Origin: Defluviitaleaceae bacterium
GTDB taxonomy: Bacteria; Bacillota; Clostridia; Lachnospirales; WRAX01
Assembly: GCA_009784575.1 (NCBI GenBank)
Contig: WRBK01000003.1
Span: 46,749-110,748 of the forward strand
Length of the DNA stretch: 64,000 bases
Direction: 5' to 3'
Each line of letters opens with the position of its first letter. Position 1 is the first letter of the stretch. Made by a program: the position numbers and the translations under genes. This document shows, piece after piece, positions 19,871 through 21,760 of this stretch. The notes below the pieces were generated by a model. The model saw only the letters and a list, made by a program, of their open reading frames with translations, was not told the origin of the DNA and did no database searches.

Positions 19871-21760
19871 TTATCTCGCCGCAATAACATTGGCTCGCAT
19901 TATAATAACATCGCCCTGCCTATAGCCGCTATTGATAGTCTTTATTATCTCGCCTTTTTTAAAGCCTTCACTTTCCTCTGCCATCAACACCTCATTCTCC
20001 TTTGGGTTAAAGACATCATGTGCTTGTGGCACAATTTTTTCCACGCCATATTTAGTGAGGATGTCGGCTGTTTGTTTGTATTGATTATCAATTTCTTCCA
20101 CAAAGGCAATCACATGTTCATCGCCACTTTCACGTAGCCTAGAAACAGAATAATACATTATCTCCTCAAAGGTTGATAACTCATAGAAAAAGCTATCGCG
20201 CATAAAGCTCATCATCTTTTTTTCTATGCCTTCTGACCTTTTAGATGAGCTTTTTTCTAGGCTTTGACGATAGTCGCTAAAATCCCTATGTTTAGCGGTT
20301 GCATCAGCGAGTTGCTTAACAATTTTCGCACCATTTTTTTCTTCCTTACCAAAAGGCAACAGGTTTTCAACCATATATGCCAAAAAGGTGACTATGGTTT
20401 CAGGGTCTATCGTGACTTTGCCTTGCGGCACAGAAGCAAAAAATGCATCTGTGCCTTCTTCAAAGACTCCCACAGCTTCATTAAGGCTATCTATTTTAAT
20501 AAGTATGGTCTCTACCACACCCTTTATGATGTCTTTTTCATCGCAATTCGCTAAATTCTCGCTATTAGAATCGTGATACTCCAAAATTCCAGCAAAACAT
20601 CTCGTAACATCACCCGCCATCATGACAAGCGCAGACACTGCCTTCTTGCTGAAATAGGCTTCTTGCTTTTCTTGCTTTTTCGCGTATTCTGTGAGTTTCG
20701 TGGTCGCAAAGTCTTCCACCACTTCGATAAAGGCACTTTGCTCCTTTGCAAAGCTTTGTTTCATGGTCTCAAATATCGTCGGCAAATCCTTGCCAAAGGG
20801 TGCTACTCCGTCAAATGATGCAGCAAAATCTTCTTCGTCCTCTACATTCATCACAACTTGACCCATATTTTCTCTGAAATTTGCCGCGCTTTCATTAAAT
20901 AGTTTTTCTATACGGTCTATTTCGCTGCTTTCGCGCTGGTGTGTTTCGCGTAGCACATTGAGGGCTTCTTCTATAATTTCGGCTTCAACTTCTGTTGCAA
21001 ACCCTTCTGAATTTACTTTTTCCAAAGCCATTACCTGTACCACAACTATTTGGCGCAGAAGGTCTTGCTCCTCTTTTAGCAACTCATTGTAATAAGAAAC
21101 ATTATGTCGCTCGGATAAGTCGTTAAGATTCACAAGGGCAAGCTTAACAGCAGAAATATATGTGCCATAAAAATCACGCAAGCAGCGGTTTTTGGCATTG
21201 TTCGCAATTTCTGTACAAACTTCTTGCACATCTTCAAAGCTAATATCATCGATACCAAGCAGCCATCGCCTAACAGCAAAATTCTCGTTTTGTGTGCTAT
21301 TTGCTTCTATTTGTTTTGTGATATTATCCATTTGCTCAGAAGCAGCGGAAATTATTTTCCTCACTATATCTTTTTTCTCAATCTGAACAGGGTTAGCAAA
21401 GCTATCGCGCTCAGATATAGCAAGCAGACGCGACATAAGCACCTCATATATGCCATCCCAAATTTCTTTAACAGCGGGGGAATTTATGGGCCGCTCAGTA
21501 TCAAGATAGATTTCAACAACCTGTCTGTAGGTGTCAATAATACGCATATATGCTTCGTAAATTTCGGTATCATAAGAGGACAATGCCTCGTCGTTGCCGC
21601 AAGCTATGCTTATTTTTTCTGCCACAAGGTATTTCAGTCCACGAAAAACATCCGCACGCACCGCCTCTACCAATTTGTCAATGATAGAGGCGGCGGCGGT
21701 CCATTTTTGAAAAATCTTTGTTTCGACTTTTAGGTTTTCGGTTTTTTTGCTTTTGGACAC
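19871..21760 (-). CDS. Large helical protein with C-terminal GrpE-like nucleotide-exchange domain
   Basis: 629 aa. The last 60 aa or so, VEKIVPQAHDVFNPKENEVLMAEESEGFKKGEIIKTINSGYRQGDVIIMRANVIAAR, follow the GrpE beta-domain pattern (G..FDP..HEA....e....v..v.q.GY....vlRpA.V.V). The N-terminal 560 aa or so are acidic, helical and without recognisable motifs. GTG start after AGGAGA. Confidence 0.75.
   Translation of the reverse strand: MSKSKKTENLKVETKIFQKWTAAASIIDKLVEAVRADVFRGLKYLVAEKISIACGNDEALSSYDTEIYEAYMRIIDTYRQVVEIYLDTERPINSPAVKEIWDGIYEVLMSRLLAISERDSFANPVQIEKKDIVRKIISAASEQMDNITKQIEANSTQNENFAVRRWLLGIDDISFEDVQEVCTEIANNAKNRCLRDFYGTYISAVKLALVNLNDLSERHNVSYYNELLKEEQDLLRQIVVVQVMALEKVNSEGFATEVEAEIIEEALNVLRETHQRESSEIDRIEKLFNESAANFRENMGQVVMNVEDEEDFAASFDGVAPFGKDLPTIFETMKQSFAKEQSAFIEVVEDFATTKLTEYAKKQEKQEAYFSKKAVSALVMMAGDVTRCFAGILEYHDSNSENLANCDEKDIIKGVVETILIKIDSLNEAVGVFEEGTDAFFASVPQGKVTIDPETIVTFLAYMVENLLPFGKEEKNGAKIVKQLADATAKHRDFSDYRQSLEKSSSKRSEGIEKKMMSFMRDSFFYELSTFEEIMYYSVSRLRESGDEHVIAFVEEIDNQYKQTADILTKYGVEKIVPQAHDVFNPKENEVLMAEESEGFKKGEIIKTINSGYRQGDVIIMRANVIAAR

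Follow-up and report, generated by a model that had tools for sequence, protein, structure and literature searches.

Canonical housekeeping GrpE is a single-domain protein of approximately 180–220 aa, and the glycine of its second bundle helix (Gly122 in E. coli) is generally conserved among GrpEs. According to a 2025 review, GrpE-like factors share one conserved small architecture across kingdoms, canonical GrpE being small with a short disordered N-terminus (PMC12987570). In the E. coli system, the DnaK IIB hairpin (276–302) docks on the GrpE bundle and DnaK loop 28–33 contacts the beta-wing, and the G122D substitution in GrpE retains binding while abolishing exchange (PMC10825016). Dedicated second copies have been described, such as Myxococcus xanthus MXAN_6672, encoded upstream of MxDnaK2 (PMC11019930); in factors of this type the gene for the GrpE-family protein shares its transcript with that of a non-housekeeping Hsp70 paralog, implying a private exchange factor, and the proteins are described as homologs of E. 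coli GrpE paired with a full-length DnaK paralog. Hsp70 and GrpE modules, with TPR, DnaJ and VWA partners, also occur in the GAP1-N2 GTPase-centred conflict systems of Firmicutes and Actinobacteria, some of which contain an extra Hsp70 without a peptide-binding domain (Kaur, Burroughs, Iyer, Aravind 2020; PMC7159879). In eukaryotes, the BAG family and Hsp110/Grp170 join an NBD-opening module to domains that place the factor in a pathway or complex (PMC12987570).

The protein analysed here, referred to as GrpE-long, is encoded in a 64,000-nucleotide stretch of a Defluviitaleaceae bacterium genome (contig WRBK01000003.1; hereafter the window). It shares with canonical GrpE (1DKG, 4ANI, PF01025) a homologous core and the F-(D/N)-P, G-Y and R-A-x-V motifs, and likewise adjoins Hsp70 genes, but is three times longer, has a structured 470-aa acidic helical domain in place of the disordered tail, and has as its presumed partners lid-less, linker-less Hsp70 paralogs rather than DnaK. 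The MXAN_6672-type paralogs provide a precedent, to which GrpE-long adds the 470-aa domain and an operon shared with four Hsp70-fold proteins. The likeness to the GAP1-N2 systems lies in the combination of Hsp70 with GrpE, in the TPR partners and in their occurrence in Firmicutes; by contrast, the beta substrate-binding domain is retained in the Hsp70 paralogs of this operon, Pfam and NCBIfam searches of the cluster revealed neither a GAP1-N2 GTPase nor an FNIII-repeat or DnaJ-fused protein, PADLOC likewise showed no GTPase or FNIII domain, and the operon is core-chromosomal with slowly evolving proteins. The resemblance to BAG, Hsp110 and Grp170 is one of analogy only, the folds being unrelated and sequence or structural similarity to GrpE-long not being detected. 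Literature searches on DUF5716/DUF5717, long or atypical GrpE and Hsp70-VWA operons yielded no description of a GrpE-long/multi-Hsp70 operon. The features of the cluster are as follows, in the direction of transcription.

28724–28752, minus strand: promoter-like site TTGATA-17-TATAAT, the best site 5' of the first gene (11 of 12 consensus positions, a consensus match only)
27396–28691, minus strand: first cluster gene, 431 aa, with hydrophobic segments at the N-terminal end and an extended helical stretch at the C-terminal end
26231–27436, minus strand: DUF5717_N protein, 401 aa, N-terminal piece of the Pfam model (DUF5717_N positions 13–264, E = 9e-38), syntenic
23484–26228, minus strand: DUF5717 protein, 914 aa, with a TPR-like stretch (Pfam DUF5717_N positions 337–867 and the DUF5717 C-terminal domain), syntenic in related loci
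21788–23473, minus strand: Hsp70 paralog, 561 aa, directly upstream of GrpE-long (Pfam HSP70, E = 3e-70)
21770–21776, minus strand: ribosome-binding site GAAGGAG, read from the sequence, 8 nt 5' of the GTG at 21760
19871–21760, minus strand: GrpE-long gene, 629 aa, GTG start and TAA stop (ORF listing)
18306–19859, minus strand: degenerate Hsp70-like protein, 517 aa (DUF5716_C), directly downstream of GrpE-long after an 11-nt gap
16669–18309, minus strand: Hsp70 paralog, 546 aa (HSP70 and DUF5716_C), its start overlapping the stop of the 517-aa gene
13897–15996, minus strand: Hsp70-VWA protein, 699 aa (Pfam HSP70, E = 1.7e-95; VWA_4, E = 3.4e-11)
11924–13165, minus strand: TPR protein closing the conserved cluster (Pfam TPR families), syntenic in L004, L009, L011, L020 and L022

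The order DUF5717_N, DUF5717, Hsp70, GrpE-long, degenerate Hsp70 (DUF5716), Hsp70, Hsp70-VWA, TPR did not vary between Defluviitaleaceae, a Candidatus Epulonipiscium MAG and Tyzzerella, and the intergenic gaps were tight. One carrier, Defluviitalea phaphyphila Alg1 (locus L011), is culturable. Within it, the order from the first Hsp70 through GrpE-long, DUF5716 and the second Hsp70 to Hsp70-VWA was the same in the 19 genome-scan loci and in the Tyzzerella and GCA_900198705 loci. The 431-aa gene was confined to Defluviitaleaceae loci (syntenic in L002, L004, L007, L008, L009 and L018) and was absent at the Tyzzerella locus. In each of the 23 related loci examined, comprising 19 genome-scan loci and four retrieved by means of an Hsp70 paralog, GrpE-long was syntenic with the Hsp70 paralogs. 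The operon is flanked by housekeeping genes, which encode tRNA synthetases, RNase P RNA, ribosomal protein L19 and FolC, and searches of plasmids and phages found no homologs. GrpE-long lies outside the hrcA-grpE-dnaK-dnaJ context of canonical housekeeping GrpE: canonical grpE, dnaK, dnaJ and HrcA were all absent from the window, phmmer with an E. coli J-domain as query found no J-domain, and no cluster protein contained an HPD motif. The operon genes of some related MAGs are interspersed with a restriction-modification pair and a PIN toxin. The operon is strongly conserved, chromosomal and so far uncharacterised, in Lachnospirales-type Clostridia. The original prediction, made from the sequence of the stretch, had placed the gene between one Hsp70 and a pair of others and had called its product dedicated. 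The placement was confirmed, with the 561-aa protein on one side, the 517-aa and 546-aa proteins on the other and Hsp70-VWA as the fourth, and the term 'dedicated' is backed by the invariant synteny together with the lack of canonical grpE, dnaK and dnaJ in the window.

The predicted 629-aa ORF was likewise confirmed, on the minus strand, with its GTG start and ribosome-binding site; the plus-strand reading of 19871–21760 was rejected, being interrupted by stop codons. An NCBI entry identical to the protein is annotated as 'nucleotide exchange factor GrpE [Defluviitaleaceae bacterium]'. The coding region was divided into three parts.

20351–21760, minus strand: N-terminal family-specific acidic helical domain, aa 1–470 (AF2, composition and profile search)
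20045–20266, minus strand: end of the GrpE stalk and two bundle helices, aa 499–572 (Pfam profile from position 39; aligned to E. coli GrpE 42–137)
19874–20044, minus strand: GrpE beta-wing domain, aa 573–629 (F-N-P, G-Y and R-A-N-V motifs; aligned to E. coli GrpE 138–194)

The Pfam GrpE profile (PF01025) matched residues 499–626 with E = 1.4e-13 and 51.3 bits against a gathering score of 25.8, covering profile positions 39–162 of 165. Using phmmer against the PDB, E. coli GrpE (1dkg_A) was matched by residues 475–625 with E = 2.9e-5 and Geobacillus kaustophilus GrpE (4ani_A) with E = 5.5e-4; the HMMER alignment of the core spanned E. coli GrpE 42–190. The 15 matches to NCBIfam GrpE models were weak and, as a difference from canonical GrpE, lay far under every equivalog cutoff (best 31 bits, cutoff 186). 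In the AF2 model the core consisted of helices 492–542 and 548–570 followed by strands 573–576, 605–615 and 618–627, which is the GrpE order of long helix, short helix and beta-domain. The pLDDT of the beta-wing was low in both AF2 models (GrpE-long and C-terminal model), in the first over 580–605, and the best six Foldseek matches of the C-terminal model in the PDB were all GrpE or GrpEL1 at E values of 0.06–1, none significant. The beta-wing motifs F584-N585-P586, G612-Y613 and R622-A623-N624-V625 were invariant or nearly so in the family; the F-D-P-x-x-H motif has Asn589 in place of its His in this clade and retains the His in the consensus of the wider family. The stalk and bundle carried a conserved motif, F-K-(K/R)-(D/E)-x-x-x-(Y/F)-E-(I/L)-S-T-F-E-E-I-x-x-Y-S-V-S-R-L-R. 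The equivalent of E. coli Gly122, in the second bundle helix, is Glu556, in a column that was variable across the 62-member family alignment, so that this bundle position of canonical GrpE is not conserved in GrpE-long. Judged by its sequence, GrpE-long is a true GrpE homolog with the whole structured GrpE core. The claim of a GrpE-like C-terminus was therefore borne out, the quoted C-terminal sequence being present, the similarity far beyond chance and the profile match significant; the lack of a significant GrpE profile match, which the prediction had named as a refutation, clearly did not apply. The assignment of the GrpE pattern to only the last 60 or so residues proved too narrow, since the homology extends over approximately 130–150 residues, from within the stalk through the two bundle helices to the beta-wing.

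Residues 1–470 were modelled by AF2 as helices of 22–76 residues with pLDDT mostly 80–95 (mean 84), and had a pI of 4.58 and a net charge of −33. No relatives were found by Pfam, NCBIfam, PDB sequence or profile search or Foldseek, and PADLOC returned nothing except a meaningless Csa3 match (E = 7e-4). An exhaustive search with the profile of this region alone retrieved 198 clusters, nearly all of proteins of 550–680 aa, and Pfam GrpE was present in 60 of 62 diverse members sampled from these matches. A word-indexed protein search with the 62-member alignment retrieved no homologs beyond the close ones already found. Comparison of four N-terminal segments with each other by hhalign gave probabilities below 10%, and an internal repeat was rejected at sequence level. 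A lid acting in trans or an extra stalk was also rejected, the N-terminus having no similarity to DnaK 500–638 or GrpE 1–90. The region is a conserved, family-specific, non-repetitive helical domain of variable length and not a generic coiled coil. Of the proposed 560 aa of acidic helical sequence, the acidic and helical character held, the latter confidently in the AlphaFold model, and the length was corrected to approximately 470–500 aa; a repeat-based ruler or generic coiled coil was not supported.

The three Hsp70 paralogs other than the 517-aa protein were aligned to E. coli DnaK and keep all ATPase motifs, which leaves a nucleotide cycle open to regulation. The 561-aa paralog has intact catalytic motifs, lacks the helical lid, has a IIB beta-hairpin of DnaK length and is 71–94% identical across the 19 genome-scan loci. 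The 546-aa paralog has a IIB hairpin 6 aa shorter than that of DnaK and is 70–90% identical across loci, with 73–76% identity to its homologs in Epulopiscium and Tyzzerella. In Hsp70-VWA (75–97% identity across loci) the lid is replaced by the C-terminal VWA domain, which carries a D-x-T-x-S MIDAS-like motif, and the IIB hairpin is of DnaK length. The 517-aa protein (Pfam DUF5716_C, E = 4.5e-26; weak HSP70 match, E = 1.8e-11) has degenerate phosphate loops (DMGTATS and DFGARGLRGS), lacks K70 and is fast-evolving, with 33–69% identity across loci. The 517-aa protein shares with the 546-aa paralog a IIB hairpin shortened by 6 aa relative to DnaK, and the loop equivalent to 28–33 is shorter in exactly the two paralogs (561-aa and VWA) whose hairpin has the full DnaK length. 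In the DnaK alignment, the paralogs have no VLLLD linker, no lid and an incomplete subdomain IB, and the equivalents of DnaK K55/R56, E264/E267 and L257, which Brehmer and colleagues reportedly classed in 2001 as DnaK-type cleft 'latch' residues, are mostly not conserved. With the linker, the lid, part of subdomain IB and most of the latch residues missing, the paralogs may exchange nucleotide rapidly unaided.

Conservation within the GrpE-long family was highest in the beta-wing (60% mean pairwise identity) and lowest in the N-terminal domain, the fastest-evolving part (22%). The first bundle helix was also far more conserved than the N-terminus, and conservation peaked at 517–545. Mean distances were 0.21–0.24 for the Hsp70 paralogs and 0.68 for GrpE-long. 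The conservation of the beta-wing and first bundle helix is consistent with a surface that binds the Hsp70 paralogs, which themselves evolve very slowly. Mirror-tree analysis for the choice of partner (n = 10) gave uniformly high correlations because of shared phylogeny; partial correlations were 0.2–0.5 and did not discriminate between the candidate partners.

On these data GrpE-long is probably, with confidence somewhat above even, a system-specific GrpE-type co-chaperone of the conserved eight-gene multi-Hsp70 operon. By homology, the C-terminal core of 130–150 residues would dimerise through its helices, and the beta-wing would enter the NBD of at least one lid-less Hsp70 paralog, between subdomains IB and IIB, so that the cleft opens and ADP is released. 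The likeliest partners would be the adjacent 561-aa Hsp70 and the Hsp70-VWA protein, because these keep a IIB hairpin of DnaK length. The 470-residue acidic helical domain stands in for the canonical disordered N-terminal tail and may tether or regulate the factor within a complex; candidate contacts are the DUF5717/TPR proteins and the degenerate DUF5716 Hsp70, which evolves fast.

The unusual length of GrpE-long was the sole reason for considering an artefact, in which fusion of genes, a frameshift in the assembly or a wrongly called start would have joined an unrelated helical protein to an ordinary GrpE, and no evidence was found in favour of it. Homologs aligned over the full length, from residue 1 to the stop codon, with the same start position; the same 550–680 aa architecture was present in approximately 200 clusters (50% identity) from independent assemblies, with the GrpE domain shared by 60 of the 62 sampled members; an identical protein is encoded on two independent contigs; and the GTG start is preceded by a good ribosome-binding site. 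The artefact reading was rejected on this evidence and its remaining probability is negligible. A different question is whether the GrpE core still catalyses exchange. It could be an Hsp70-NBD docking module only, GrpE-long then being a structural subunit or adaptor of a stable hetero-oligomer, in which it keeps one or more paralogs, the degenerate DUF5716 Hsp70 possibly among them, open and poor in nucleotide without catalysing turnover. This would suit the large structured N-terminal domain as a scaffold and the obvious pseudo-ATPase encoded 11 nt downstream; Glu556 at the variable Gly122 position recalls the E. coli G122D protein, which binds without exchange (PMC10825016), and with most latch residues and the allosteric linker missing from the paralogs, an exchange factor is perhaps unneeded. 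However, conservation is strongest in the beta-wing, the element that drives exchange, three paralogs have complete catalytic motifs, and docking without exchange would be unusual, since an NBD cleft is generally opened when a GrpE core binds. A purely structural role is accordingly considered unlikely, although it retains a real share of our expectation.

Another possibility is that the operon encodes an NTP-dependent system for conflict or phage defence, comparable to those reported by Kaur et al. (2020), in which Hsp70, GrpE, VWA and TPR components sense or set a threshold and GrpE-long resets the Hsp70 switch. Pointing in this direction are the Hsp70, GrpE, TPR and VWA modules of the GAP1-N2 systems (PMC7159879), weak partial PADLOC matches of the Hsp70 paralogs to the candidate system PDC-M61B (E = 1e-5 to 3.5e-7) and the restriction-modification and PIN toxin genes amid the operon in some related MAGs. 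Against it, Pfam, NCBIfam and PADLOC searches of the cluster revealed neither a GTPase or MoxR nor an effector nuclease, protease or pore domain, the flanking genes are housekeeping genes, plasmid and phage homologs were not found, and Hsp70 paralogs 70–97% identical in a gene order fixed across families are typical of vertically inherited core functions; a conflict function is therefore regarded as improbable. The co-chaperone reading can be extended in a more speculative form, which we hold to be rather unlikely as a whole: the N-terminal domain would be a new Hsp70-binding or complex-assembly module, and a GrpE-long dimer would bridge several Hsp70 paralogs into a J-protein-independent, hetero-oligomeric 'multi-Hsp70 machine' with a core role in Lachnospirales. 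The GrpE wings would then engage the DnaK-like NBDs, and the helical domain the degenerate DUF5716 Hsp70, the DUF5717/TPR proteins or both. To our knowledge, no J-protein-independent hetero-oligomeric multi-Hsp70 system has been described in bacteria before.

As a GrpE-type co-chaperone, GrpE-long departs from the small architecture shared by GrpE-like factors in the permanent attachment of a large structured domain to the GrpE core. Beside it the operon encodes three catalytically intact Hsp70 paralogs that lack lid and linker, one of them a VWA fusion, and a pseudo-Hsp70, a J-protein not being found; the remaining components of the operon have no designation other than DUF5716 and DUF5717. 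An active GrpE-long would be a starting point for the reconstitution of an unexplored Hsp70 system of bacteria, and would make it possible to test how nucleotide exchange is arranged where several Hsp70s cooperate without the canonical allosteric elements.

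The 629-aa open reading frame of GrpE-long, originally predicted to be a dedicated, extended nucleotide-exchange factor, was confirmed at 19871–21760 on the minus strand; plus-strand translation of this interval gives stop codons. The reading frame begins with GTG at 21760, a start position common to its homologs, with GAAGGAG 8 nt upstream, and lies in a cluster of closely spaced minus-strand genes.

27396–28691, minus: protein of 431 aa whose N-terminus has hydrophobic segments and whose tail is long and helical (gene 1)
26231–27436, minus: DUF5717_N, 401 aa (gene 2)
23484–26228, minus: DUF5717, 914 aa (gene 3)
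21788–23473, minus: Hsp70, 561 aa (gene 4)
19871–21760, minus: GrpE-long, 629 aa (gene 5)
18306–19859, minus: DUF5716 Hsp70-like protein, 517 aa (DUF5716_517; gene 6)
16669–18309, minus: Hsp70 with DUF5716_C, 546 aa (gene 7)
13897–15996, minus: Hsp70-VWA, 699 aa (gene 8)
13107–13847, minus: ferredoxin-like (4Fe-4S) membrane protein, between the Hsp70-VWA and TPR genes (gene 9)
after gene 9, minus: TPR protein (gene 10)
49030–49385, minus: RNase P RNA, bacterial class A (Rfam RF00010, 280 bits)
2968–4185, minus; 4182–4823, minus; 4859–5935, plus: ORFs of 405, 213 and 358 aa, respectively, without a Pfam match at E < 1e-5

A profile search of the C-terminus with Pfam GrpE (PF01025) was significant (E = 1.4e-13, 51.3 bits versus a gathering score of 25.8), covering residues 499–626 and profile positions 39–162 of 165. 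Among PDB sequences searched with phmmer, E. coli GrpE (1dkg_A) matched residues 475–625 (E = 2.9e-5) and Geobacillus GrpE (4ani_A) also matched (E = 5.5e-4). Judged from sequence, the similarity is real and statistically strong; the homology claimed for the last 60 or so residues stood, but reaches beyond a 60-residue beta-domain to the whole structured GrpE core. NCBIfam GrpE equivalog models scored only weakly (≤31 bits versus cutoffs of 137–348), so on these scores GrpE-long is a divergent GrpE rather than an ortholog of housekeeping GrpE. NCBI has an identical protein, automatically named 'nucleotide exchange factor GrpE [Defluviitaleaceae bacterium]'. There is good support for regarding GrpE-long as a genuine member of the GrpE family, dedicated and extended.

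Full-length GrpE-long was modelled with AlphaFold2 using a 15-sequence alignment (mean pLDDT 84). Residues 11–570 were helical, with helices of 22–76 residues, and the GrpE order was reproduced (H492–542, H548–570, then beta strands within 573–627), with low confidence at 580–605. When residues 471–629 were modelled separately (pLDDT 67), Foldseek placed GrpE or GrpEL1 chains (9a81, 1dkg, 9blt, 9bls) in all six top ranks of a search of 350,542 PDB chains; their E-values of 0.06–1 are not significant, and the matches are thus supportive, not decisive. GrpE-like proteins have one conserved architecture of disordered N-terminus, stalk, short helical domain and beta-wing (2025 review, PMC12987570); GrpE-long shares the last three, whereas the disordered N-terminus is replaced by a 470-aa domain.

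This domain (residues 1–470) is acidic (pI 4.58, net charge −33), has no detectable internal repeats, and had no relatives in Pfam, NCBIfam, PADLOC or the PDB by profile search, or by Foldseek. Sequence comparison with the DnaK lid and the GrpE stalk showed no resemblance. Searched alone against 1.84 billion representative proteins (E < 1e-3), its profile matched 198 clusters, nearly all of 550–680 aa, and the domain was seen in no other context; Pfam GrpE was present in 60 of 62 diverse sampled members. The combination of N-terminal domain and GrpE core is therefore a fixed one. In the 62-member alignment, mean pairwise identity was 22% for residues 1–470, 36% for the GrpE helices and 60% for the beta-wing, with a second conservation peak at the first bundle helix (motif FK(K/R)(D/E)xxx(Y/F)E(I/L)STFEEIxxYSVSRLR). 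The N-terminal region had been proposed as a scaffold or ruler, or as a thermosensor-like coiled coil. Given its structured, family-specific character, its fast evolution and its variable length, a tether would fit better than a ruler or thermosensing coiled coil, and would attach GrpE-long to equally fast-evolving non-Hsp70 or pseudo-Hsp70 components.

The order of the core genes did not differ among 19 species-level genome loci, which come from Defluviitaleaceae MAGs, from Defluviitalea phaphyphila Alg1 (an isolate), and from one MAG each of Candidatus Epulonipiscium and of a rumen Bacillota. It was the same in four further loci reached via the 546-aa paralog, from uncultured Tyzzerella and from GCA_900198705.1 (a 2.57-Mb contig), where GlyRS, ValRS, FolC and ribosomal protein L19 flank the operon. 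Its neighbours in the window are HisRS, AspRS, a gene of the purine-nucleoside-phosphorylase family, ABC transporters, a PASTA kinase and RNase P RNA. The window as a whole yielded no tRNA genes, and plasmid and phage searches found no operon homologs. The operon is core-chromosomal and probably inherited vertically.

The 431-aa gene opens the cluster in Defluviitaleaceae and is missing from the Tyzzerella locus; directly upstream lies the region's best sigma-70-like site (28724–28752; 11 of 12 positions, by consensus match only). Two adjacent genes divide the Pfam DUF5717_N model (875 positions) between them, with positions 13–264 in the 401-aa and 337–867 in the 914-aa protein and 2 nt between the stop of the first gene and the start of the second; related loci are split likewise. 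The 4Fe-4S gene has no counterpart in the other loci, and the 670-bp gap at 15997–16668, between the 546-aa Hsp70 and Hsp70-VWA genes, holds fragmentary ORFs only. Several related MAGs from termite guts carry unrelated insertions between the genes of the otherwise fixed operon: related locus L003 has them at 3601–4852 and 6628–7092 (D12-class adenine methyltransferase and PD-(D/E)XK nuclease; PIN toxin), and in locus L008 three tandem paralogous lipoproteins of ~500 aa each, without a Pfam match, occupy 11794–16584.

Hsp70 paralogs were aligned to E. coli DnaK. The 561-, 546- and 699-aa paralogs retain both phosphate loops, K70, E171 and the adenosine motif, and are 70–97% identical across loci. 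DUF5716_517 is degenerate (DMGTATS, DFGARGLRGS, no K70) with a still recognisable NBD fold, evolves ~3 times faster than these active paralogs, and is likely a pseudo-ATPase subunit. Evolution is much faster in GrpE-long, DUF5716_517 and DUF5717, with cross-locus identities of 26–69%, 33–69% and 22–61%, respectively. All four Hsp70-fold proteins end after the beta substrate-binding domain, without the helical lid, and lack ~24 residues of subdomain IB and the VLLLD-type hydrophobic interdomain linker; in the 699-aa paralog the lid position is taken by a VWA domain, which has a MIDAS-like motif, D-x-T-x-S. Since, in addition, no J-domain or HPD motif was found in the cluster or window, these sequences suggest an Hsp70 allostery departing from the canonical scheme.

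By homology with GrpE, the C-terminal core would dimerise through its helices, and the beta-wing would wedge between NBD subdomains IB and IIB, leading to ADP release. Such a mechanism fits a family whose conservation is highest in the beta-wing, an operon whose slowest-evolving proteins are the Hsp70s, and the intact ATPase of three of these. The GrpE four-helix bundle is the docking site of the DnaK IIB hairpin 276–302, whose shortening weakens binding ~100-fold (PMC10825016). In the 561-aa paralog and Hsp70-VWA this hairpin has DnaK length; it is 6 residues shorter, consistently across orthologs, in the two DUF5716_C-bearing proteins, so the former pair is weakly favoured as partners of GrpE-long. 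Loop 28–33 is shorter in that same pair, which counts against a simple picture. Most DnaK-type cleft latch residues, reportedly classified by Brehmer et al. 2001, are not conserved in the paralogs, which may therefore exchange nucleotide quickly unaided and may not need an exchange factor. The position of E. coli Gly122 is Glu556 in GrpE-long and varies across the family; in E. coli, G122D abolishes exchange and spares binding (PMC10825016). Given the shorter loop, the unconserved Gly122 position and the largely lost latch, a non-catalytic docking or adaptor role is a serious rival to the exchange-factor reading.

Dedicated second GrpEs beside DnaK paralogs are known, e.g. in Myxococcus (PMC11019930), and Hsp70-GrpE modules occur in GTPase-centred conflict systems (PMC7159879). 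A conflict role for the operon is argued against by its conservation pattern and by Pfam, NCBIfam and PADLOC searches, in which the defining GTPase and FNIII components were not found. A literature search found no paper on this operon, or on DUF5716/DUF5717 in this sense. GrpE-long is an extended GrpE-family protein inside an uncharacterised, widely conserved multi-Hsp70 operon.
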